64,000 nt of DNA from Candidatus Saccharimonadota bacterium (GTDB lineage Bacteria > Patescibacteriota > Saccharimonadia > Saccharimonadales > JACDBH01): assembly GCA_028289135.1 (NCBI GenBank), contig JAQGGW010000005.1, positions 139,219 to 203,218 of the forward strand, in the 5' to 3' direction. The notes under the pieces are model-generated. The model was given only the letters and a program-made list of their open reading frames with translations. It was not told where the DNA came from and made no database searches. Made by a program: the position numbers and the translations under genes. Position 1 is the first letter of the stretch; each line of letters opens with the position of its first letter. Of the stretch, positions 20,052 to 44,521 are shown piece by piece.

Positions 20052-20411
20052 ATGGCGGCAGAATCATACGATATTAGTTTTAAGATAAGAGAAGTTAATA
20101 GTAATGTGACTTACTTGGAGATAGAGGTTGTTCCGCCTGTTTCTGAGACAACCCTCAAGAAGCTTTTTAGCGTTGCAGAAAGTAGCCTTCGCGGGCAGTG
20201 TAGCGTTCTCAGTATGCCTACAATTGCTGAAAACAGCCTTAGCTCATTCGGAGTAGCGCAAATCATTAACCCTGCTTCAGGACATGCTGAAGTTAAAACT
20301 GAAAAACAGAGTTTTATTAATGATATAAAATATTCCTTGTCTCCAACTGGTATGGTAGACACAAACATAGTAGCTTGTGATATTAAGTTATTGGAAGGGC
20401 AGATTGCGTAA
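20052..20411 (+). CDS. hypothetical protein (119 aa, ORFan)
   Basis: Strong SD AAGGAGG 5 nt upstream. AT-rich codons. No recognisable motif. Confidence 0.5.
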   Translation: MAAESYDISFKIREVNSNVTYLEIEVVPPVSETTLKKLFSVAESSLRGQCSVLSMPTIAENSLSSFGVAQIINPASGHAEVKTEKQSFINDIKYSLSPTGMVDTNIVACDIKLLEGQIA

Positions 20412-20639: not shown

Positions 20640-23600
20640 ATGGCGAAAGCAACCGTTAAATCTGACCCACGTGGCAAGCGCGTGTATTTTACTAAAGTCG
20701 ATGATGTTTTGGATATGCCAAACCTCGTTGATCACCAGAACAAATCATTCCAATGGTTTGTAGACGAAGGCCTTGGGGAGCTTCTTGCTGAAGTCAGCCC
20801 AATCGACGACTACACTGGCGGCAAATTATCACTTACCTTCAAGGGCTACCACTTTGAAGAGCCAAAGATCACCGAATCTGAAGCTCGAGAGAACAACGTT
20901 AGCTACGACGTGCCATTAAAGGCAGTTGTTGAGCTAACAAACAAAGTTACTGGTGAGATCAAAGAGTCCGAAATCTACTTGGGCGACTACCCATGGATGA
21001 CTAAGCGCGGTACCTTTATCATTAACGGCGCGGAACGTGTTGTTGTATCCCAGCTGATCCGTTCGGCTGGAGTGTTCTTTACATCTGAACAACATGGCCT
21101 TAACAAGCTCTACGGAGCCAAGGTTATCCCTGGCCGTGGCGCATGGCTCGAATTTGAGACCGCCGCTGCAGGCGCTCTCTACGTTAAGATCGACCGAAAG
21201 CGAAAAATTGCTGTTACCACATTACTAAAAGCTCTTGGTATGACCGAAGCTCAGATCAAAGATGCATTTAAGCACGTTGACCAAGGCAAGCTAAACTACA
21301 TCGAGACAACATTGGATAAGGACCCATCTAAGGGTTCAAACGAAGCCTTGATCGAAGTCTATCGCCGTTTGCGCCCAGGTGACCTCGCGACCGTTGATAA
21401 TGCCCGAAGTTTGCTTGAAAACATGTTCTATAACTACAAGCGCTTTGACTTTAGCCGCGTTGGCCGCTACAAAATCAACAAGCGTCTTAACTTGGACGTT
21501 CCAAATGTGGCCGAAAACCGCGTTATGCGCCTTGAAGACCTTATAGCCATCATTGCCGAAGTTATCCGCATGAACAACACTCAAGAAGCAGCTGACGATA
21601 TCGACAGCCTTGCTAACCGCCGTGTTAAATTGGTTGGCGAGCTTGTACAGCGCCAGTTCCGTATTGGTTTGCTACGCATGGAGCGCAATGCCAAGGACCG
21701 TATGAGCATGAGCGACATCGAAAACGTTTCCCCAGGCCAGCTCATTAACGCCCGCCCAATTGTGGCTGCCGTTCGTGAGTTTTTTGCTTCATCACAGCTA
21801 AGCCAGTTCATGGATCAGATTAACCCATTGTCTGAGCTAGCCCACAAGCGCCGCCTTAGCTCTATGGGACCTGGTGGACTATCCCGTGAACGCGCTGGAT
21901 TTGAAGTCCGTGATGCCCACGCAACCCACTACGGCCGTATATGCCCTGTGGAAACGCCTGAAGGCGCCAACATTGGCTTGGTGCTAAACCTTGCATCATA
22001 TGCCCGTATTAACGACTATGGTTTTATTGAAACTCCGTACCGCCGTGTTGTTAACGCTGCGACCGCCAAAGACATTGTTGGCCATGTTGCCGGCGCTGAT
22101 TTGGAAGTAAACGGCAAAGTAGTTGTGAAAGCTGGTAAATTTGTTACCGCCGAGGACGCTAAAAAGCTAGCAACCGTTAAAGATCAGGTTACTTGGCCAG
22201 TTAAGGCCCGCGCATCCAAAGATGTTGTCTATATGGACGCATCCGAAGAAGAGCACGCGATTATTGCCAGTGCCGGTAGTGAGATCGACGAAGATGGCTA
22301 TTTCATTGACGAACGTCTTCCAGCCCGCCGTTTCTTGGTTGCCGCCGAAGTTGGCGCCGACGAAGTTACGCATGTTGATGCCGCCCGCCGCCAGGTGATC
22401 GGTTCCAGCGCAGGCTTGATTCCGTTTATTGAAAAGAACTATGTCTACCGAAGTTTGATGGGTAGTAACCAGCAGCGCCAAGCCGTGCCGCTAATCTCCC
22501 CGCAGAGCCCGATTGTTGGTACAGGTTTCGAAGGTACAGCAGCGCGCAACACCGGCCAGCTGATTGTGGCCGAAGGCGAAGGCGAAGTTGTGCAGGCCGA
22601 AGGCGCCCAGGTTACCGTTAAGTATACTGACGGCCAAAAAGTTGTCTACGAACCGTTGCACTTTGTGCGCTCTAACGAAGGCACCAGCATAAACCAAAAA
22701 GTTGTTGTTGCCACCGGTGACAAGGTTAAAATGGGTGATGTTTTGATCGAAGGTATGTCAGTCCAGGGCGAAGAACTCGCGCTTGGCAAGGACCTTGTCG
22801 TGGCATTTATGCCATGGAGCGGCTACAACTTTGAAGATGCGATCATTATTTCCCGCAAACTTGTCGAAAACGACACATTGACCAGCATTAACATTGTTGA
22901 CTATATGACCGAAGTCCGCGAGACAAAACTCGGGCCTGAAATCGTTACCCGCGACATCCCGAACGTATCAGAAGACGCTCTCCGCCACCTCGACGAAGAC
23001 GGTATTGTCCGCATTGGCGCCGAAGTCCATCCTGGCGACATCTTGGTTGGTAAGATTACGCCAAAGGGCGAACAGGAACTAAGCTCAGAAGAAAGACTGC
23101 TCCGCGCGATCTTTGGTGAAAAAGCCAAGGAAGTCCGCGATACTTCACAGCGTATGAGCAACGGCAAACACGGTAAGGTTGTGGGCGTAAAAGTCTTTAG
23201 CCGCCAGAATGGCCATGAACTTAAAGCCGGTGTTTTGATGCAAATCCAGGTTTTTGTGGCCCAAATGCGCAAGATCCAGGTCGGCGACAAGCTCGGTGGA
23301 CGCCACGGTAACAAGGGTGTTATTGCCCGTATTTTGCCAGAAGAAGATATGCCGTTTACCGAAGACGGTACGCCAGTTGATATCGTGCTCAACCCACTCG
23401 GTGTCCCAAGCCGTATGAACATCGGACAGCTGTTCGAAACCCACCTTGGTATGGCCGCACGAGCATTAGGCATGAAAGTTGCCAGCCCATCATTCAACGG
23501 TGTTCCAATCCAGAAAATCCAGGACCTTCTAAACGACGCTGGTTTGCCGCGCGATGGCAAGCAGCAGCTGTTTGACGGCCGCACCGGCGACGCATTTAAA

Positions 23601-28602: not shown

Positions 28603-28824
28603 ATGGGTGAAAGATTTGCCACTGATTTCGATATTGAAACTGGAGTTAACCGTAAAGAAACACCTATTATACAACCTGTAACTGATGGATTATTTGATCA
28701 AGCTGCATACGTTGAGGCTCTTGAACAAGGTAAAGCTCCAATAACAGCACGTCGTGCTGGTATCAATGCAGGGAGTGTCACAATGGCAGCGATTGTGACA
28801 GTAGAAGGAGTTCAAAATGCCTAG
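28603..28824 (+). CDS. hypothetical acidic micro-protein (73 aa) inserted between rpsL and rpsG
   Basis: ATG 2 nt after the rpsL stop. Its last codons contain the rpsG SD (GAAGGAG), and its TAG lies inside rpsG codons 2-3 (ATGCCTAG). AGA/TTA/ATA codons. Confidence 0.5.
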   Translation: MGERFATDFDIETGVNRKETPIIQPVTDGLFDQAAYVEALEQGKAPITARRAGINAGSVTMAAIVTVEGVQNA

Positions 28825-29936: not shown

Positions 29937-30389
29937 ATGCCCGGTTACACAGAAAAGGGGCCAAGCTCAATGTCATCAGGCAATCAAGTTCAGTCAGTTT
30001 TGCCCATGAACATTGAAAAATGGAACCTAACTATTTCGAATCATATTGGACATCCCTCTAATGATGGCTACCCCGCGCTTGGAGTGCAGGGTGAGATTGT
30101 TTGGTTTGACTATACAGGTATGCAAATACCTCCTCTTTATAACCCTTATACTACTCAAGCCTCTGCACCCACAACAGCTAACAGGCTTTCACGCCGTGTT
30201 GAATCTAGTTCGTCCCGAGTAACGGCACTAGACTTAAGCCCACAACAAATTTGTGAGCAAGCGTGTTCGAGCAACCGAAGAAGTGGTTATCGTTGCGACG
30301 GCGCACAACTTGACAAGGACTTTGGAGATTTTAAGTGTTCAGTCACGGGTGATTATGAATCTTTGCCGGTAAGTTTAAGATTTAGGTAA
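29937..30389 (+). CDS. hypothetical protein (150 aa, ORFan)
   Basis: SD AAAGGA 8 nt upstream. First of three ORFs separated by 1 nt each. Confidence 0.5.
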   Translation: MPGYTEKGPSSMSSGNQVQSVLPMNIEKWNLTISNHIGHPSNDGYPALGVQGEIVWFDYTGMQIPPLYNPYTTQASAPTTANRLSRRVESSSSRVTALDLSPQQICEQACSSNRRSGYRCDGAQLDKDFGDFKCSVTGDYESLPVSLRFR

Positions 30390-30390
30390 T

Positions 30391-30879
30391 ATGGTAGATC
30401 CTGAAATTACCGGAGCTGTAGAGCCTTGGCAGGAATCTGCTGACCGCGATTATCCTGGATATGATGGTGGTTTCGTAGGCCATGAAGCTATAAAAAATTA
30501 TTATAACGCGTTAGCTTTGGACATCGTGACAGCAAATATCAAAAACTATTTTCAGGTAACTGGCAGTTATGCTGAAGCTAACGGAGTGGTCACTCACGAA
30601 GATTTAGCAGCAGGCTATGCGGCTCTGATTGTTTCTATCGCTGAAAGTGCTGCCCTGAGCGCACAAGCGGAAGATACTAAAAATGGTGGTAATGCGCGTT
30701 TGCGCCTTATGATTGATATGAAGCAAGATTTAATAGATGCTGAAGCAAAGAAGAAGGCAGCAGCGGCCAAAGCGGACGAACTAAAAGAAGCAATACGAAG
30801 GATTAATGAAGACAGCATATTGCGACAAGCCGCAGTCATAACAGCGAGCCGTGCCGAAATAGTGGAGGTAACAGAATAA
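30391..30879 (+). CDS. hypothetical protein (162 aa, ORFan; Ala/Lys-rich helical C-terminus)
   Basis: Starts 1 nt after the previous stop. DAEAKKKAAAAKADELKEAIRR segment. Confidence 0.5.
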   Translation: MVDPEITGAVEPWQESADRDYPGYDGGFVGHEAIKNYYNALALDIVTANIKNYFQVTGSYAEANGVVTHEDLAAGYAALIVSIAESAALSAQAEDTKNGGNARLRLMIDMKQDLIDAEAKKKAAAAKADELKEAIRRINEDSILRQAAVITASRAEIVEVTE

Positions 30880-30880
30880 T

Positions 30881-31255
30881 ATGGCAGGCCAAGAAACATC
30901 TATTAGAGCTGGAGAGGAATCAGCAGCTGAACAACCGCGATACGCTCGAGTTTTATCTGAAGTTGAAAGAATCCAAGGAGAAGAGGCTAAGCGTATCATA
31001 AGTCTTTCAAAACTTGCTTGGGTATTTGAATTAACACAAAAGCAAGTAAATTTGCATTCTCATTTAGAGGTTGCCGCCGAACGGCTAGCTAGAGGTATCG
31101 CTTCAATTCCAGTATTACCTGAGATATTGGCAGTATTCCAAGAAAATTACACGACTCCGCTTGTTGATGTTCTTGGAGCTGATAGATTCGCCACCATAGT
31201 TGCAGAATGTTCAGATCAAACTAACATTGTTCAATCACAGCCTGAGCTTGCGTAA
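30881..31255 (+). CDS. hypothetical protein (124 aa, ORFan)
   Basis: Starts 1 nt after the previous stop. Its 3' end overlaps the -35 of the fusA promoter. Confidence 0.5.
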   Translation: MAGQETSIRAGEESAAEQPRYARVLSEVERIQGEEAKRIISLSKLAWVFELTQKQVNLHSHLEVAAERLARGIASIPVLPEILAVFQENYTTPLVDVLGADRFATIVAECSDQTNIVQSQPELA

Positions 31256-33664: not shown

Positions 33665-34264
33665 ATGCCTACTCATCCCGAACTTGTAGCACAAACACTT
33701 TTGACACTTGAGGCACATCGCCAGGCTCCCCATATAATTGATGATGCCTATGAAGATGGCATTATTGATGATGCTCATCATCTAGTAATTACTTCTAAAG
33801 GCAACTCGCAAACTGCAGTAGTGACACCGATGTATAGGGGCTTCGTGTATGGTTCAAGCCTGCTCGAACGATTTGATATGGCGGCATTATGTAATCGAGT
33901 TTTTGTCGAGGCGCGTATTAAAGTGGCTTCAAATGATCGTAAACAACTTGAAACAGCCAACGTAACGCTTAGATATGCTTTTGCACCAAAATTCCTACAA
34001 CCAAATAAGGTTCTAGAAACCCAGGCTCGCTACCCATTAGATCCAGAGGCCGAATATGGCACTATGGAAAGAGTTATTGCTGCAATTGGCGAAGTAGGTG
34101 TTGAAGGGGCAACAGTTCCAAATACTAGTGGTTATGTAGAGGTACCTGATGACCCGTACAGAAAAAATAACGACCGCTGGGTTGTAACTGATCACATGAG
34201 CGGTTTAGTAGTTGCTGAATGTATCCATGAAGCAGTGAGCCGGTTGCATTTTACGGAGCTTTAA
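33665..34264 (+). CDS. hypothetical protein (199 aa, ORFan)
   Basis: SD GGAG ~8 nt upstream. No recognisable motif. Sits between fusA and tuf. Confidence 0.5.
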   Translation: MPTHPELVAQTLLTLEAHRQAPHIIDDAYEDGIIDDAHHLVITSKGNSQTAVVTPMYRGFVYGSSLLERFDMAALCNRVFVEARIKVASNDRKQLETANVTLRYAFAPKFLQPNKVLETQARYPLDPEAEYGTMERVIAAIGEVGVEGATVPNTSGYVEVPDDPYRKNNDRWVVTDHMSGLVVAECIHEAVSRLHFTEL

Positions 34265-35718: not shown

Positions 35719-35870
35719 GGCTCAACTACGCTTCTATGCACGGCAAGAAACGAAAAACTGCATCCAAATGCATCGGCCAGTGACATGTTTGAATTGTTCC
35801 AGGAAATGAGATTTTGTTATTTTAGTCAAAACTATGCTAAAGTAGGTTTAATTAAATGAGGTTAATTGAG

Positions 35871-36215
35871 ATGGCGGAATTTTGTCCTGGATGCGATAGA
35901 GCGGGAATGGTTGTAGGTGATGTAGCTATAAGTATAAAAAAAGACGAACTTAGAAGTCCTTTAACAGATCTAGCTATAACTTTTACAGACGAAGATGGTT
36001 TTTTGCAACGCGGTTTTTTTGGTAGAGTTGTAGACCAAGAAGCAGACCTGGATACCAGCCTACTTGGCGAACGTCTTCTCAGCCGTATAGATCGCTGTAA
36101 AAGCCCAATGAGAAATGGTACATGCCCAGCCTTTAATCATGAGGTGGTTGAACAGTTAATACGATCTCAAGTAAGCCAGGAAGCAATAACTGAGCCTGAC
36201 CAGCCAGGAATTTAG
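35871..36215 (+). CDS. hypothetical protein with two Cys pairs (possible zinc-ribbon-like)
   Basis: MAEFCPGCDRAG...RCKSPMRNGTCPAF. ATG 35871 has GAGG 9 nt upstream; ATG 35856 is also possible. Confidence 0.45.
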   Translation: MAEFCPGCDRAGMVVGDVAISIKKDELRSPLTDLAITFTDEDGFLQRGFFGRVVDQEADLDTSLLGERLLSRIDRCKSPMRNGTCPAFNHEVVEQLIRSQVSQEAITEPDQPGI

Positions 36216-36295
36216 AAAAGCAAAAATACCATCGTGTAAAGAAGCTCACTGACTTATCTAGATAGACATTCATAATAAGTATCTTAGGAGTGCTT

Positions 36296-36628
36296 ATGTC
36301 TGTAGAGTTTAAGGGGCCTGTTATACCTGTTAGAATTGATGGCGAAAATGCTTCGCTACGTATTGTGCGTGATATGTCGTATAACATCGAAGCCGCCAGC
36401 GTGCTGTCTAACCCCGATGCAAATCCACCTTATGTCCAGCTAACACTGATATCTCCTCCAGGACCGCATTATAAAGAAGTTTGTGCAGATAAAATTACAG
36501 GTGATCCTGAGCCAAACCGTGCTCGCCTTATGTTTAACGAGCCATTTGGCGTTGATAAACTTATAGCTAACGCAATGAAAAGAGTAAGCAAGTCCAGGCA
36601 CCCAGCAGGAAGAGGAAATGCGAATTAA
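36296..36628 (+). CDS. hypothetical protein (110 aa, ORFan)
   Basis: SD GGAG 5 nt upstream of ATG 36296. No recognisable motif. Confidence 0.5.
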   Translation: MSVEFKGPVIPVRIDGENASLRIVRDMSYNIEAASVLSNPDANPPYVQLTLISPPGPHYKEVCADKITGDPEPNRARLMFNEPFGVDKLIANAMKRVSKSRHPAGRGNAN

Positions 36629-37410: not shown

Positions 37411-37420
37411 CCATCTAAAG

Positions 37421-37450
37421 GGGCCTGGGAAACCGGGCCTTTTACTTTTT
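37421..37450 (+). terminator. intrinsic terminator right after rpsJ
   Basis: GGCCTGG-GAAA-CCGGGCC (7 bp, one G-U, GNRA loop) followed by TTTTACTTTTT. Confidence 0.8.
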
Positions 37451-37789
37451 ATGATTCACTTTCATGCTAATTATTTCGAAGGCACGACACAGCTCGGCCC
37501 TCATGTTACTCGTACTTTTGTTATTAACGAGGCTGGCTTCAGCGTGCCTGGTGCAATAACCGCATTTGAGGAATTAGAGTTAGCACGTGTCATTACATTC
37601 GCGCCTCATGTACATTTCGACACAAATGTTGAGCATCCAAGTATTCTTGTCCGCAATTCCGTGAAGGCCGGGAAACATATTGCTAAAGTCTTACGGCTAA
37701 GCGATTGGGGGGTTGGTAACTTCTCGAATGTATTCAACACAGATGCACTAGATTTTTGGCGTCCACAACAAGCTGACGATGATCTCTAA
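37451..37789 (+). CDS. doubtful hypothetical protein (112 aa)
   Basis: The ATG abuts the T-run of the rpsJ terminator and there is no SD or promoter. No motif recognised. Confidence 0.3.
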   Translation: MIHFHANYFEGTTQLGPHVTRTFVINEAGFSVPGAITAFEELELARVITFAPHVHFDTNVEHPSILVRNSVKAGKHIAKVLRLSDWGVGNFSNVFNTDALDFWRPQQADDDL

Positions 37790-37804
37790 GAGTGGTAAGT
37801 TAAC

Positions 37805-38158
37805 AAAAAAATAACCCCGGGCCTGATAAGCTTCGGGGTTATTTCGTATTCCGTCAGATGTATTCTTCGCGCATAGCCAGCTATTTCGAATTATTGCTGA
37901 GCAGGGTTATCAGCCCTCTTTTTCACGCTAGTCTGAGTCTCGCGCCGCACGGATACAATTTGCCGCTTAGCGATGGTGCCGGAGGTAAAAGGTTGGTCAA
38001 CTCTTGTCCATGGAACAAGCCGCCGCCTCTATTTTTACAACCTTCCTACAATAGCAGCTCACAACCAGTTTGGGCCGTACCCTCGCCGCATTGCTTATCA
38101 CCCTCCCAAAACAGAAGAATGCTCCTTAAACATACACTGGAACCATAACCAAAATCAA
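37805..38158 (-). ncRNA. candidate ~350-nt structured non-coding RNA, unclassified
   Basis: No credible ORF on either strand. Minus-strand TTGACC (38192-38187), 16-18 nt, then TATATAAA (38170-38163). Minus-strand terminator AACCCCG...CGGGGTT (37840-37813) plus T7. The transcript ends pair: 38114-38142 with 37849-37868 (4+4+7 bp). Confidence 0.45.
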
Positions 38159-38209
38159 CTATTTTATATATGAAAAAACTTACAGCGGTCAAAATGGTAT
38201 ATTAAAGTC

Positions 38210-38683
38210 ATGAATAAAGTTGTTGTGGCCGCAGAAGCTTTGGACCTTAGGCGGGGAATTGATTATATTGGTATTTCGGCTAATTTTGTCATTCACGATG
38301 GCAAAGGCAATATTTTATTACAAAAACGGAGCCAGAACTGCCGTGATGAACAGGGCAACTGGGACATTGGCGGCGGGGCTTTAGAATTTGGCGAAACTCT
38401 AGTAGAAGGCGTACGGCGCGAAGTTAAAGAAGAACTAATGACCGAAGCATTGGAAATAAAACTTCTAAAAGCCTACGAAGCCATCCGTGACAACAACGGT
38501 ACGCCTACGCACTGGATGGCGTTTACCCACGCCGTGCTGGTTGATCCTAAATCTATAAAAATTGGCGAACCACACAAGATTGATGAAATTGGCTGGTTTA
38601 CATCCGCGAACTTACCGAGTCCGCTGCACAGCCAGTTTTATAAGTCTTTTGATATTGCCCGCGAGCTCGGAATTGTGCATTAA
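38210..38683 (+). CDS. NUDIX hydrolase
   Basis: 157 aa. Nudix box GGGALEFGETLVEGVRREVKEELM. Extended -10 TGGTATATT (38195-38203) lies 6 nt before the ATG. Confidence 0.88.
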   Translation: MNKVVVAAEALDLRRGIDYIGISANFVIHDGKGNILLQKRSQNCRDEQGNWDIGGGALEFGETLVEGVRREVKEELMTEALEIKLLKAYEAIRDNNGTPTHWMAFTHAVLVDPKSIKIGEPHKIDEIGWFTSANLPSPLHSQFYKSFDIARELGIVH

Positions 38684-38738
38684 TCCAACTGTGGCATATC
38701 TAACAGCTTATGCTAAAGGGTTTTGATAACTTTATTAG

Positions 38739-39035
38739 GTGGAGTTTCCCCCATACGAAGCAGGTGAAGACGAACTTCTAACGGCCGCCAGAGGTGCTGT
38801 ACCTGAACTTTGCGGTGGATGTGAAGATATTAATGAGTTGGCATTTAGTTTATATAAACATGCTGCATATGAACGTGATTTTTTTAGACGTGATAGGCGT
38901 TCCAGATATCCTGATACTTTACGGATGCAACCTCCAAATCCAGAGCGCCTAGCCAGACACATATCCCTTGTTATTGTGGCAAAATGTTTATCACAGTGTC
39001 CATACGGCGTCCCTGTGCGAATAAGAACTTCTTAG
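38739..39035 (+). CDS. hypothetical protein with CGGC and CLSQC pairs (98 aa)
   Basis: GTG start without a convincing SD. Two Cys pairs. Confidence 0.3.
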   Translation: MEFPPYEAGEDELLTAARGAVPELCGGCEDINELAFSLYKHAAYERDFFRRDRRSRYPDTLRMQPPNPERLARHISLVIVAKCLSQCPYGVPVRIRTS

Positions 39036-39050
39036 TGCTACACTTAATTT

Positions 39051-39944
39051 ATGAAATTTGGCGCTACTTTTTCATATAAATATGCCCTGGAAATGAGCGT
39101 TGACCCCAAGGAGTGTCTAAAAGCGGCACTGGATGATCTGGGTGTAAGGAGATTGCGCCTTATGAGCTACTGGGATCTCCACGAACCCAAACAAGGCTCC
39201 TACGACTTCACAGAGCTCGACTGGCAGGTTGATATGGCCGAGCAGTCTAATTGTGCTGTTTTGCTATGCCTTGGCCTCCGGCAGCCCCGTTGGCCCGAGA
39301 GCCATTGGCCGGCTTGGGCAAAAGTGTTACCGGATGCAGAGTGGCAAAAGGCGCTGGACGACTACATTACAGTGGTGGTTAACAGATATAAAGGCCGGAA
39401 ATGTATCTTAAGCTATGAGTTAGAAAACGAAGCACTGCTAAAAGCCTTTGGACTAGATGGTAACTATGACCGTAACAGATTAAAACGTGAGTTTAAACTG
39501 GTTAAAACATTGGATCCAAGCCGGATAGTCATAATGAGCACCAGCGACTCCGGCGGTTTCCCATTATTTGGCCCAAAACCAGATATGTACTCCTACACAA
39601 TCTACCGTTACTTCTTTAGGCGCGGCAAGTACCGCCACTCTGTCCGCCCAGCTTGGACATACCACCTGCGGGCACAAATTATCTATCTGTTTAAGCGCCG
39701 TAAATCTTTCATCCATGAGCTCCAAGCTGAACCGTGGGGTCCAGAAGGCACTTCAAAGTTAACTGTCGAAGAGCAGTTTAAGAGTATGAACAGGGAAAGA
39801 GTCCAGGAAGCTGTGGCATACGTGCGCCGTACGCAACTGCTTCCAGCTGACCTTTGGGGCTTGGAGTGGTGGTACTGGCTAAAAACGGCTCAAGATATGC
39901 CGGAAATATGGAATGACCTAAAACCTATATTCGCTGAGGAATAA
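39051..39944 (+). CDS. glycoside hydrolase, clan GH-A TIM-barrel-like (family unassigned)
   Basis: 297 aa. SYELENE (acid/base-type NE) and IHELQAEPWG (nucleophile-type E) spaced as in clan-A enzymes. Confidence 0.6.
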   Translation: MKFGATFSYKYALEMSVDPKECLKAALDDLGVRRLRLMSYWDLHEPKQGSYDFTELDWQVDMAEQSNCAVLLCLGLRQPRWPESHWPAWAKVLPDAEWQKALDDYITVVVNRYKGRKCILSYELENEALLKAFGLDGNYDRNRLKREFKLVKTLDPSRIVIMSTSDSGGFPLFGPKPDMYSYTIYRYFFRRGKYRHSVRPAWTYHLRAQIIYLFKRRKSFIHELQAEPWGPEGTSKLTVEEQFKSMNRERVQEAVAYVRRTQLLPADLWGLEWWYWLKTAQDMPEIWNDLKPIFAEE

Positions 39945-39949
39945 CAGTT

Positions 39950-40495
39950 CTACTCTCCAAATAAACTGGTGGTGGTTGCCATACCAACAGTAACCGTTGC
40001 TAACATCTGTAGTGGGTGCTTTTTGCCATCCTGGTTGCCTACGCGTATAAATCTATCAAAAAATGCCGCTCGCGCACCCCAGTAAGAGGTAAATCTTGTG
40101 TCCACGTGCGCTGCTCTGCGTGGATCTACTTTTGCACTTCTAGCTGCCGCACCTAGAGCGTTTAGTGAAGTTAAAAACCCGCCGTATTCGTTGGGAGCAT
40201 ATACGGGAGGGTAGCCAAGCTGCGCCTGGACCATTTCAACCAAAGTAGACGAAATTCCACAGGCATCCGCCGGGAGGTCTTGGTGGTTGTCGTTTATAAT
40301 CGCGGTTTTGATCCCAACTTCGGCCAATTCCTCAAGCAATGTCTGTGCATGCTCATGTACATCATAAGTGTTACTACCATGAGCTAGCATCAAACTACCA
40401 AGTCCAAAGGTAACCAGGCCAATACCGCCTTGCTCAAACCCTTTTGCGTTAAGTTTGCTTAAGTCGACGCCTACTTCTATTCCAGTTCTTAACAT
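39950..40495 (-). CDS. hypothetical protein (181 aa)
   Basis: Only sizeable minus-strand ORF inside the r-protein region that does not overlap a plus-strand gene. No motif recognised. Confidence 0.5.
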   Translation of the reverse strand: MLRTGIEVGVDLSKLNAKGFEQGGIGLVTFGLGSLMLAHGSNTYDVHEHAQTLLEELAEVGIKTAIINDNHQDLPADACGISSTLVEMVQAQLGYPPVYAPNEYGGFLTSLNALGAAARSAKVDPRRAAHVDTRFTSYWGARAAFFDRFIRVGNQDGKKHPLQMLATVTVGMATTTSLFGE

Positions 40496-40584
40496 GCGTA
40501 CAAGTGTAGGGCAGCCTTATATTAAAGTAAAACGCTAAAGCTAATGTAAAATATGCTGCAACACGCAGTAGAATGCACAACGTC

Positions 40585-40614
40585 TTGACAGGGGTAGTGT
40601 TAGCATGGTAATCT
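40585..40614 (+). promoter_or_regulatory. promoter TTGACA-N18-TAATCT (extended TG) of the rplC operon
   Basis: -35 at 40585-40590, TGG at 40606-40608, -10 at 40609-40614. Confidence 0.6.
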
Positions 40615-40647
40615 GTAGTGGTATATCAACAAATTGTGTACGCAGCA

Positions 40648-40701
40648 CTTGGTAAATTGGCAGGTCTAACAGATTAGAAACCGCCTCCTACCAAGGTTTT
40701 T
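40648..40701 (+). promoter_or_regulatory. terminator-like hairpin in the rplC leader (possible autoregulatory attenuator)
   Basis: Three stacked helices: CTTGGTA/TACCAAG, GGC(A)GG/CCGCC and TCTAA/TTAGA. Followed by GTTTTT, 55 nt before the rplC ATG. Confidence 0.5.
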
Positions 40702-40756
40702 AATAGCTGTGCCTCACAGAGATATCGAAAGATAACTCATAAAAAATAAGGAATCT

Positions 40757-42042: not shown

Positions 42043-42422
42043 TGAAAGATCTCATGTTAATTCCTAGAATCTCCGAAAAGGCATATGCCATGAGCCAGCG
42101 CGACAACATTAAGACCTATGTCTTTGAAGTCCCAACCGGTTCAAACAAGCATTCTGTTGCCCGCGCCGTGACCATGCAGTTTGACGTTGTTGTTACCAGT
42201 GTCCGCACAACTACTGCTAAGGGCAAGGTTAAGCAAAGTTACCGCAAGGGCGGCCGCCCAATTACCGGAACCCGCAGCGATGTTAAAAAGGCATATGTAA
42301 CACTCCGTGAAGGCGATGTTTTGCCATTATTCATAGAAGAGCAGCAAGAAGAAGAAAAGCAGCTTAAGGCTGACCAAAAAGCTGCTAAAGAAGCCAAAAA
42401 GGCTAAGAAGGAGACCAAGTAA
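42042..42422 (+). CDS. rplW: 50S ribosomal protein L23 (Lys/Glu-rich C-terminal extension)
   Basis: 126 aa. L23 core plus tail EEQQEEEKQLKADQKAAKEAKKAKKETK. Confidence 0.93.
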   Translation: MKDLMLIPRISEKAYAMSQRDNIKTYVFEVPTGSNKHSVARAVTMQFDVVVTSVRTTTAKGKVKQSYRKGGRPITGTRSDVKKAYVTLREGDVLPLFIEEQQEEEKQLKADQKAAKEAKKAKKETK

Positions 42423-42679
42423 TGGCTATTCATAACCAAGACCCTTTTGTCTTACATATTGACGATGTTCTTGCACATAATTCTATCGCAACTGGCATAA
42501 AAGACGCTACGGGATTAGATACGGTTTTTGTACCAGCAAATCCTAGCAATACACCTAAAGAAAATGCTATGTTTGCTGGAAAAGCTGCTCTAGCTAGTTC
42601 AATTAATAATGGTGGTTTAGTAAGAGCTGCAGAAGCTATTATTGAAGAACGTGGTGGTTTATTTGGGGAGGCAATCTAA
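42422..42679 (+). CDS. hypothetical acidic micro-protein (85 aa) inserted between rplW and rplB
   Basis: TAATG overlaps at both ends. Its first 10 nt (ATGGCTATTC) are identical to the first 10 nt of rplB. Carries the rplB SD (GGGGAGG). TTA/AGA/ATA codons. Confidence 0.5.
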   Translation: MAIHNQDPFVLHIDDVLAHNSIATGIKDATGLDTVFVPANPSNTPKENAMFAGKAALASSINNGGLVRAAEAIIEERGGLFGEAI

Positions 42680-43533
42680 TGGCTATTCGCGCTTATAAGC
42701 CTACAACTCCTGGCCAACGTGGCATGACCACCCAGGACTTCGATACAATCACGACTAAGAAGCCTCTTAAGAGCTTGATAGTTGTAAAAAAGAAACAGTC
42801 AGGACGAAATAACCAGGGCCGTATTACAACCCGCCACCAAGGTGGTGGTGTCCGCCAGTTCTACCGTTTGGTAAACTTTAACCTTCCTGCCGGCACCAAA
42901 GCTACCGTTGAAGAGATTGAATACGATCCAAACCGCAGCGCCCGTATTGCCCGCATAAAAGACCAGGACAACAAGTACCACTATATCTTAGCCGGCACCG
43001 GAATTGTCCAGGGCCGCGTTATCCAGGCTGGCGAAGACGCTCCTGTTGAAGCTGGCAACCGTTTGCCAATCAAGAACATCCCAGTTGGTTCAACTATTTA
43101 TGCTATCGAAATCCAAGTTGGTAAGGGTGCCCAAATGGTGCGTTCTGCCGGTAACAATGCCCAGCTAATGGCTAAAGAGGGTGAATACGCCCAAGTCCGT
43201 TTGCCATCTGGCGAAATCCGTTTGATCAATGTTGATTGTATGGCTAGCTTGGGTACCGTTGGTAACGAACAGCACCAGAACATCAAGATTGGTAAAGCTG
43301 GACGCAACCGCAAGAAGGGCATCCGCCCATCTGTACGTGGTGTTGTTATGAACGCTGTTGATCACCCGCACGGTGGTGGTGACGGTGGTCGGCACGGTGT
43401 TGGTGGTGGTAAAAACCATGGTTCTGCTCCGCGCACTCCATGGGGTATTAAGACACTTGGCTACAAGACCCGTAAGCGTAAGTCTACAAGTAAGATGATC
43501 GTAAAGAGCCGTCACGCGGCGAAGAGGAAATAA
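42679..43533 (+). CDS. rplB: 50S ribosomal protein L2
   Basis: 284 aa, MAIRAYKPTTPGQRG...; VMNAVDHPHGGG motif. Confidence 0.97.
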   Translation: MAIRAYKPTTPGQRGMTTQDFDTITTKKPLKSLIVVKKKQSGRNNQGRITTRHQGGGVRQFYRLVNFNLPAGTKATVEEIEYDPNRSARIARIKDQDNKYHYILAGTGIVQGRVIQAGEDAPVEAGNRLPIKNIPVGSTIYAIEIQVGKGAQMVRSAGNNAQLMAKEGEYAQVRLPSGEIRLINVDCMASLGTVGNEQHQNIKIGKAGRNRKKGIRPSVRGVVMNAVDHPHGGGDGGRHGVGGGKNHGSAPRTPWGIKTLGYKTRKRKSTSKMIVKSRHAAKRK

Positions 43534-43535
43534 CC

Positions 43536-43832
43536 ATGATGTTCCCTAATACTTTAGTAGAAAAAGAAATGAACAGATTTACAGAAAGAGTTGTATCGTA
43601 CGCTAATGGATCTGATCCAAGAACTCGTGATGGTATGCTTTCTGTTGTTGCTGAGGAAATTGCTATAAGTGCTGTTGACAGTCCTTTGGCCCATCCAATA
43701 GCGTGGAAAAAAGATGCCTACGATGCTATCGGTGGTTATAACCGAATAGCGGCACCGGTTATTGAGAACGCTGTTGACTTTGTATTAAAAGAAATTGGAA
43801 GAACAGCAAGCTTAGGAGGCCGATATGTCTAG
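43536..43832 (+). CDS. hypothetical micro-protein (98 aa) inserted between rplB and rpsS
   Basis: ATG 2 nt after the rplB stop. Its 3' end supplies AGGAGG for rpsS, and its TAG lies within rpsS codons 2-3 (ATGTCTAG). Several AGA codons. Confidence 0.5.
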
Positions 43833-44094
43833 ATCATTAAAGAAAGGTCCGTTTATCGATCCAAAGCTTGCAAAGAAAATTGCAGCTTTGTCTAATGACG
43901 ACCGTACCATCATCAAAACTTGGGCACGCAGCAGTACAATCTCACCAGATTTTGTTGGCCGCACCTTGGCTGTACACAACGGCAAAGTCCACGTTCCAGT
44001 GTTTGTAACCGAAAACATGGTTGGCCACAAGCTTGGTGAATTTAGTCCAACACGTAAGTTCCGCTCACACGGCGGTAAGATGGCGAAGGGTTAA
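43825..44094 (+). CDS. rpsS: 30S ribosomal protein S19
   Basis: 89 aa, [15 protein letters not shown]... Confidence 0.96.
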
Positions 44095-44098
44095 AATT

Positions 44099-44521
44099 AT
44101 GCCAGTACAAGCAATTGCCAAAGGTGTTAGTATCTCTCCACGCAAAGTATCAGTTGTTGCAAGCCTTGTTCGCGGCCGTACTGTTGCAGACGCATTAGTT
44201 ATCTTAAGCCACACTCCACGTAACTCAGCCACATCTGTAATTAAGGTCATCAACAGCGCAAAAGCCAATGCTGACCACAACCATGGCTACAAGCCCGACA
44301 CACTTCGTATTACCGAAATTTCCGTTACTCCTGGCCCACGCAGCAAGCGTTTCCGTCCAGTCTCACGCGGTATGGCACACCCATACCAGAAGCGTACCAG
44401 CCACATCAAAGTGGTTGTAGACGGCGAAATGCGCGCAGCTAAGAAGCCAGCTGTATCTACCGCTAAAGCATCTGATGCCAAGGCCGCTAAACCAGTAACC
44501 ACAAAGAAGGAAGCAAGGTAA
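44099..44521 (+). CDS. rplV: 50S ribosomal protein L22 (A/K-rich C-terminal tail)
   Basis: Starts at MPVQAIAKGVSISPRKV (internal ATG of ORF 44021..44521, 4 nt after the rpsS stop). Confidence 0.95.
   Translation: MPVQAIAKGVSISPRKVSVVASLVRGRTVADALVILSHTPRNSATSVIKVINSAKANADHNHGYKPDTLRITEISVTPGPRSKRFRPVSRGMAHPYQKRTSHIKVVVDGEMRAAKKPAVSTAKASDAKAAKPVTTKKEAR

Follow-up and report, generated by a model that had tools for sequence, protein, structure and literature searches.

The 16-gene ribosomal-protein block is regarded as the most stable and syntenic piece of the bacterial genome, and it forms the backbone of CPR phylogenomics. In the window analysed here (a stretch of 64,000 nucleotides from a Candidatus Saccharibacteria MAG) the whole gap between two genes of this block, rplB and rpsS, is occupied by an open reading frame of 98 amino acids, orf98. 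The locus raises the question of whether orf98 is a gene at all and, if so, how it came to stand between the genes for L2 and S19 and what it could do there. The best explanation, which is given a probability of about 0.62, is that orf98 is a genuine small coding gene, horizontally acquired, a hitch-hiker coupled translationally to its neighbours in an accessory slot that recurs in the S10 operon of Saccharibacteria. The features of the locus, numbered along the window, are the following:

42679..43533, + strand: rplB (L2), sharing 96-66% identity in translation with its counterparts of 80 Saccharibacteria loci
43522..43528, + strand: SD-like AAGAGGA in the rplB tail, 7 nt ahead of the orf98 ATG
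43536..43832, + strand: orf98, 98 aa, acidic (pI 5.3) and predicted to be helical
43814..43819, + strand: AGGAGG in the last codons of orf98, replacement SD for rpsS
43825..43832, + strand: stop/start overlap ATGTCTAG of 8 nt, with the rpsS ATG and the orf98 TAG
43825..44094, + strand: rpsS (S19), the conserved downstream gene

An earlier, sequence-only reading of this DNA had placed a micro-ORF between L2 and S19, and the frame of 98 codons is confirmed at 43536..43832. The rplB stop TAA (43531-43533) is followed by CC and then by the ATG of orf98 at 43536, so that the distance of 2 nt given in that reading holds, whereas position 43534, from which the ORF had been counted, immediately follows the stop and lies ahead of the start. 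The ribosome-binding site of S19 had been located correctly in the 3' end of the ORF (AGGAGG, 43814-43819), although the spacer to the rpsS ATG (43825) measures 5 nt (CCGAT) instead of 6. As that reading had also proposed, the stop TAG (43830-43832) lies within ATGTCTAG and is made by codons 2 and 3 of rpsS, both genes overlapping by 8 nt. The orf98 frame differs from that of rplB, and the conserved rplB stop stands between them.

The signals by which translational coupling is recognised are found on both sides of orf98: upstream, an SD inside rplB (in its final codons AAG AGG AAA TAA) and an ATG 2 nt past the TAA; downstream, a stop that overlaps the rpsS start and an SD in the 3' end of orf98. 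According to the mechanism proposed here, ribosomes ending rplB would re-initiate 2 nt further on at the orf98 ATG via the SD of the rplB tail, and those ending orf98 would stop at the TAG overlapping the rpsS ATG and re-initiate on the replacement SD AGGAGG. Because of coupling at both ends, orf98 would be expressed without its own promoter or terminator, and L2-to-S19 coupling would stay unbroken. The scan of positions 42300-44300 detected no promoter-like site (0), nor anything resembling a terminator in or beside the insert. Besides, a 12-nt inverted repeat is present at 43806-43817 and 43860-43871 (GCAAGCTTAGGA / TCCAAAGCTTGC, 92% complementary, 42 nt apart), which might possibly pair part of the rpsS SD with rpsS codons 12-16 as a coupling-enforcing hairpin; it is apparently not conserved in a close relative (L002) and could be due to chance.

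The same stop geometry had been pointed out for the insert between rpsL and rpsG, and this insert (28603..28824) does end 8 nt into rpsG (start 28817). However, the 'ATGxCTAG' geometry is set by the own codons 2 and 3 of the downstream genes and, as read from these codons, is no signature of inserts. The conserved 5' end of rpsS (ATGAGT.. or ATGTCTAG..) carries stops in both alternative frames, and any ORF coming from upstream therefore ends 4-16 nt from the ATG.

The foreign-looking use of arginine codons described for orf98 was recovered by counting: AGA accounts for 4 of its 7 Arg codons, versus none of the 25 in rplB (24 CGN, 1 AGG) and one of the 6 in rpsS. Its G+C contents at the three codon positions (0.53/0.42/0.27 for GC1/GC2/GC3) follow the order GC1 > GC2 >> GC3, the GC3 of rplB being 0.49. 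The open frame exceeds what is expected by chance, since after mononucleotide shuffling the insert keeps one frame open in just 0.12% of cases. The product is identical to the NCBI 'hypothetical protein JWO47_705'.

When 1.84 billion cluster representatives were scanned exhaustively with HMMER, one true homolog emerged, P0002 (100 aa, phmmer E = 3e-12), which BLASTP aligns with orf98 from end to end over 100 columns, with 40-41% identity and two one-residue gaps. P0002 is encoded exactly between L2 and S19 in four independent assemblies (L083-L086), its gene starting 3 nt past the rplB stop and ending in ATGTCTAG, and its sequence is the same in ENA, JGI and Logan assemblies. The host genome is distant, with an rplB 70.5% identical to that of the window. 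Full-length collinear similarity, together with the location between rplB and rpsS, places both proteins in one slot family. A word-indexed search of 5.8 billion proteins, made with orf98 alone and with the two-member profile, gave no protein other than orf98 itself and P0002, and a metagenome scan with orf98 peptides gave no match. Two further candidates from the HMMER scan, P0003 and P0004, were rejected as homologs, as they are tandem-repeat proteins in which many weak stretches sum up.

Identities at the first, second and third codon positions of orf98 and P0002 are 0.57/0.62/0.43, and the flanking rplW, rplD, rplB and rpsS display a similar profile. The NG86 method gives dN/dS = 0.59/1.33 (dN < dS) for what is one saturated pair, selection on orf98 being gauged on this pair because the family has only two known members. 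The sequence-only reading had named conservation of the frame in relatives as a check, and the frame is indeed found in the same slot of a relative with a coding substitution pattern, which demonstrates, at the level of sequence comparison, that orf98 evolves as a protein-coding gene. From the two-sequence alignment, AlphaFold2 predicts a five-helix model of orf98, a helical bundle with pLDDT 77 and pTM 0.69.

A clear match to a known protein family, which the same reading had considered as evidence against its proposal, did not appear. No significant match to orf98 was obtained in Pfam (best E = 0.028, short of the cutoff) and none in NCBIfam, and Foldseek comparisons of the orf98 model with PDB and BFVD gave a best E of about 0.9. 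The orf98 region has no Rfam match at E <= 1, and RNA folding of the insert gave a z-score of -0.88, that is, no unusual stability; a cis-regulatory RNA or r-protein leader was rejected on these two counts. Neither tblastn against phage and plasmid collections nor a viral-contig scan detected relatives of orf98, and no donor was found among phages, plasmids or viral contigs. A near-identical copy in a distant host was not found, and neither the window nor the 88 loci contain other copies. Terminal or flanking repeats at the insert are short and at chance level only, and a MITE/IS-like element was discarded in view of the lack of terminal inverted repeats, target-site duplication and multiple copies. 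In the literature, we found neither ORFs at the rplB|rpsS junction nor inserts in the r-protein operons of Saccharibacteria described.

The junction was followed through other genomes with rplB as bait, which provided the best 80 Saccharibacteria species loci of more than 586 matches. Junctions were counted in the 79 sequences in which both genes could be mapped (78 fetched loci plus the window), and an insert was called where the gap was at least 90 nt. Among these sequences, drawn from the best 80 of more than 586 matches, 24 of the 79 have an rplB|rpsS gap of 100-511 nt, versus 0-10 such gaps at each of 17 other junctions of the S10-spc cluster. Each rplB|rpsS gap is filled to 96-103% by a single + strand ORF, for which the chance probability, summed as log10 over the loci, is about -52. 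The insert ORF starts with an ATG 1-5 nt past the rplB stop in 23/25 cases, and an SD-like tetramer is found 4-19 nt ahead of the rpsS ATG in 22/25 inserts. A strong SD-like hexamer is present in the rplB tail of all 25 insert-bearing loci versus 35 of the 55 insert-less ones (Fisher p = 2e-4). Insert-less relatives have just 0-3 nt between rplB and rpsS, with the same rplB-tail SD directly ahead of the rpsS ATG. As this SD serves rpsS in such relatives, the insert would take over the original initiation context and supply a new one for S19. More than 25 independent assemblies share the slot architecture, the complete genome CP025011.1 (L047) being one of them. The recurrence of inserts at this junction is thus established among the loci examined, where about 30% of Saccharibacteria species appear, from their sequences, to have it occupied.

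The slot ORFs are mostly unrelated to each other, all-vs-all BLASTP, phmmer and tblastx detecting two families only. Family 1 consists of orf98 and P0002, and family 2 ('MLxF..PP') has seven members, all seven located within the rplB|rpsS slot; this confinement to the slot is equally expected under vertical inheritance with frequent loss. hhalign found no link between the two families. In family 2, the L033 and L087 proteins share 76% identity with dN/dS = 0.155/1.31 = 0.12, and the dN of the inserts exceeds that of rpsS by a factor of about 7-10. The AF2 model of family 2 has a pLDDT of 78, and Foldseek found no structural analog for it in PDB, with none better than E about 0.9. Searches of 26 slot ORFs against Pfam, PHROGs and PADLOC gave nothing at E <= 0.01. 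A motif of the type hydrophobic-x-x-G-hydrophobic-x-x-G, present in many inserts but missing from orf98, was tried and dropped.

What the slot proteins do have in common is acidity (23/26, median pI 4.86). Net charge per residue is -0.047 in frame versus +0.07 to +0.08 in other frames or shuffles (24/25 loci, p about 1e-7). The GC3 of the insert is below that of the adjacent rplB in 24/25 loci, with a mean drop of 0.18, which could mean weak codon selection on young genes rather than foreign origin. With about a third of the related species having a small, acidic and mostly unrelated gene at this place, the junction behaves as a swappable accessory-gene slot.

Comparison with the closest relatives reveals how fast the content of the slot changes. 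The closest one (L001, rplB 96% identical) has an rplB|rpsS gap of 3 nt and no insert, and L002 (rplB 93% identical) contains an unrelated ORF of 82 aa. A DNA-pattern scan of the rplB tail provided two further close relatives: L081, with a gap of 2 nt and no insert, and L082, with yet another unrelated slot ORF of at least 117 aa. The flanks in this clade are 85-97% identical right up to the razor-sharp boundaries of the insert. The inserts of the window, L002 and L082 show no similarity to one another in DNA or in any frame, including a tblastx check for frame shifts, and in the family-2 calibration orthologs at this host divergence keep 61-76% identity; these three slot ORFs are therefore non-orthologous occupants. 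Turnover is thus cassette-like, the closest relatives being either empty or provided with unrelated inserts. On an NJ tree of r-proteins from 78 taxa, presence and absence of the insert need at least 19 changes, and the root state is absence.

From these sequences, orf98 has most likely been acquired horizontally and not by vertical inheritance, and the probable route would be homologous recombination in the flanks, which are highly conserved. A comEC DNA-uptake system is present in Saccharibacteria (PMC12102498). Over the first 18 nt of rpsS the window clusters with L002 (both with insert), apart from L001 and L081 (both without); the rest of rpsS and the r-protein tree pair the window with L001 instead. 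The variable sites within this stretch (window 43825-43842) are rpsS sites 4, 5, 13 and 18, which read ATGTCTAGATCATTAAAG in the window and L002 versus ATGAGTAGATCACT.AAA in L001 and L081. Such a pattern could be a recombination joint, for which four sites are a small hint, or it could reflect convergent or overlap-linked codon choice. As for the codons, Ser2 is TCT in 5/6 inserts ending at the +8 TAG versus 5/54 insert-less loci.

Other explanations of the slot have to be weighed against horizontal acquisition of a coding gene. The ORF could be a spacer with no protein function, its frame being kept open only for L2-to-S19 coupling or to cover the mRNA; this would agree with inserts that always consist of exactly one ORF with coupling signals at both ends, that are mostly unrelated orphans without known domain and that turn over rapidly between close relatives. 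Nevertheless, orf98 and P0002 keep 41% amino acid identity and conserved first and second codon positions at the same time as their third positions are as diverged as those of the r-protein genes (0.43 vs 0.39-0.46). The dN/dS of 0.12 in family 2, the confident compact AF2 models of both families and an acidity that is specific to the reading frame are also contrary to a spacer, and we consider it quite improbable. That the insert is not a gene, but an S19 leader or cis-regulatory RNA, a product of faulty assembly, or an extension split off from L2 or S19, finds its one favourable point in the position, in an operon known elsewhere for RNA-based autoregulation. The lack of an Rfam match at E <= 1, the folding z-score of -0.88, the same architecture in more than 25 independent assemblies (CP025011.1, a complete genome, among them), the identical P0002 in ENA, JGI and Logan assemblies and an orf98 frame different from that of rplB and placed behind a conserved stop all speak against it, so that an RNA element or artefact is effectively refuted.

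The two remaining alternatives accept a gene and dispute its origin. If an expanded junction spacer, automatically transcribed and translated, had become a gene in situ, genes would originate in the slot rather than arrive there from elsewhere. Inserts that are orphan, low in GC, short and lineage-restricted would be in agreement with such a birth, and a mini-insert of about 110 nt, described below, shows that small insertions at junctions can instantly yield read-through ORFs. This origin is unlikely, however: there is no orthologous non-coding precursor, because insert-less relatives have 0-3 nt between rplB and rpsS; the GC1/GC2/GC3 pattern and the foldable helical models resemble those of mature genes; and the 41%-identical homolog is in a distant lineage while missing from nearer ones. 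The strict definition of a de novo gene does not apply to orf98 either, as the insert-less relatives hold no corresponding DNA. On the other hand, all slot ORFs could come from a single ancestor by vertical descent, with ultra-fast divergence and many independent losses. The insert dN of about 7-10 times the rpsS dN, the fall of insert identity from 76% to 24-31% while r-proteins hold 87-97%, and the geometry, acidity and size range common to the slot ORFs would be accounted for in this way. Yet at the divergence between the window and L002 (rpsC 94%, rplP 96%) family 2 is still 61-76% identical, whereas the inserts of the window, L002 and L082 have no similarity in DNA or any frame and the more distant L083 retains 41% identity to orf98. 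Since, moreover, parsimony puts absence at the root and hhalign does not link family 1 to family 2, common descent of this kind is held to be rather improbable.

Several known systems resemble orf98 in part, taken as the horizontally acquired, coupled gene of the preferred reading. Phage 'morons', a concept of Hendrix and Juhala, are reportedly extra genes between two genes that are adjacent in related phages. Like them, orf98 stands precisely between conserved neighbours, its presence varies among close relatives, and the slot products are small orphan proteins of atypical base composition (lower GC). Unlike them, it resides in a cellular chromosome, in the S10 ribosomal operon, and not in a phage or prophage; it appears from the sequence to be translationally coupled on both sides, without promoter or terminator of its own; and no phage homologs of it were found. 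Of the features that define a moron, insertion between adjacent genes and atypical composition are thus present in orf98, whereas its own promoter and terminator and residence in a phage are absent.

Passenger genes are also known in r-protein operons. Those of the spc operon (secY, adk, map and infA) are non-ribosomal, ancient and universally conserved housekeeping genes, co-transcribed with the r-protein genes and often coupled by overlapping stop/start codons as the slot ORFs are; the latter, in contrast, are orphan, variable and dispensable at species level. Horizontal-transfer hotspots are sites flanked by core genes whose content is exchanged by homologous recombination in the flanks. 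The slot is likewise one site between two core genes with different accessory content in each lineage, and the start of rpsS (18 nt) hints at a recombination joint, but the scale of the slot is that of one small ORF and not of islands of several kb, and it is located within an operon, at a stop/start junction, with no integrase, tRNA or repeats. Finally, orf98 is short, fast-evolving, patchy and without detectable family, as ORFan small proteins and proto-genes are. It differs from them in that no non-coding precursor exists at the syntenic site, and purifying selection and confident fold predictions suggest a mature slot gene.

With regard to function, our guess, made with low confidence, is that the orf98 product would be an abundant, acidic, compact and helical protein, made together with strongly basic neighbours, that binds a basic partner, be it L2, S19 or the ribosome within the translation apparatus, or a component of a conflict system. 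A broader idea, speculative and unlikely as things stand, is that the slot encodes interchangeable, lineage-specific ribosome-associated proteins, near-stoichiometric with L2 and S19 and swapped as cassettes through the conserved flanks. If this were true, the slot proteins could be accessory subunits, chaperones dedicated to their basic neighbours, or a protection from toxins with which hosts or competitors attack the ribosome, and they would give the ribosome of this epibiotic lineage of reduced genome a 'variable accessory module'.

The importance of the locus lies in the fact that, in about 30% of Saccharibacteria species among the loci examined, orphan genes occupy one junction of the 16-gene block, a slot with high turnover. 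The genes in it are under purifying selection and would be expressed by pure translational piggy-backing. The slot therefore offers a natural system for the study of how new or foreign genes enter essential operons without upsetting stoichiometry, and its ORFs are candidate highly expressed, lineage-specific proteins of poorly annotated epibionts. It also calls for caution in marker-gene pipelines which presume a contiguous ribosomal block. The phenomenon would gain interest if it proved to be general or linked to the ribosome.

Other inserts are found in the same gene region of the window, two of which, single inserts like orf98, are these:

28603..28824, + strand: orf73, insert between rpsL and rpsG, overlap ATGCCTAG, GC3 0.19
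42422..42679, + strand: orf85, insert between rplW and rplB, 1-nt overlap at each end, GC3 0.17, absent from L001 and L002

The suggestion that the three single inserts might be distant paralogs was not borne out. The hhalign probabilities of orf98 with orf73 and orf85 are 0.2% and 0.06%, respectively, BLASTP gave no alignment at E <= 100, and orf73 and orf85 are not detectably related to each other. Orphan + strand ORFs pepper the str/S10 region between rpsL, rpsG, fusA, tuf, rpsJ, rplC, rplW and rplB (28603-28824, 29937-31255, 33665-34264, 35856-36628, 37451-37789, 38739-39035 and 42422-42679), all of them without Pfam match and most of them acidic. The GC3 of eleven orphan ORFs in this region of the window is 0.17-0.38 versus about 0.45-0.57 in ordinary genes, and AGA makes up 31% of the Arg codons in a ten-ORF subset of the window orphans versus 4-5% in ordinary genes.

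A different kind of insertion, a conserved mini-insert of about 105-125 nt, occurs at varied r-protein junctions of different Saccharibacteria and twice in one genome:

L083:6222-6347 and L072:8768-8881: mini-insert at rpmC|rpsQ
L034:10625-10738 and L061:10417-10533: mini-insert at rplE|rpsN
L061:7514-7618: mini-insert at rplV|rpsC
L047:4885-5001: mini-insert at rplC|rplD
L020:101-127: core of the mini-insert only

Its core is AGGGAAAAGAGCAGCCAGAG-hairpin-CCCTGCGCGATGAGAAAAACCGTAGGTTTGT, the hairpin showing compensatory changes, and each copy is flanked by a duplication of about 17 nt of the local SD-stop-ATG junction, owing to which the mini-insert is read through as an ORF of 34-41 aa with coupling preserved. 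No Rfam family matches the mini-insert, and the window has no copy of it; it resembles a structured mobile element of small size that targets stop/start junctions. Like orf98, it is inserted in these operons precisely where the stop of one gene meets the start of the next, and it is likewise read as a small ORF that leaves coupling intact; unlike orf98, which has no repeats, duplicated junction or further copy, it is a multi-copy conserved DNA/RNA element with a covarying hairpin and a junction duplication of about 17 nt.

Some minor observations concern the same genomes. The rpsJ|rplC interval (62 loci; window 37411-40756) is never tight, with gaps of 178-4093 nt and a median of 1.6 kb, and it holds several conserved ORF families, the largest of which number 40 and 48 members, one on each strand; the interval of the window contains a NUDIX gene and a glycosyl-hydrolase-like gene. 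Three loci labelled Nevskiaceae, Burkholderiaceae and Candidatus Nomurabacteria (L034, L036 and L075) have r-protein operons of Saccharibacteria type, with rplB 69-73% identical to that of the window, and this similarity suggests mis-binned or mislabelled MAGs. Elsewhere in the window, an ORF of 119 aa (20052-20411, GC3 0.34, no Pfam match) is situated about 230 nt upstream of an ORF of 1190 aa at 20640, which we take to be a putative rpoB.
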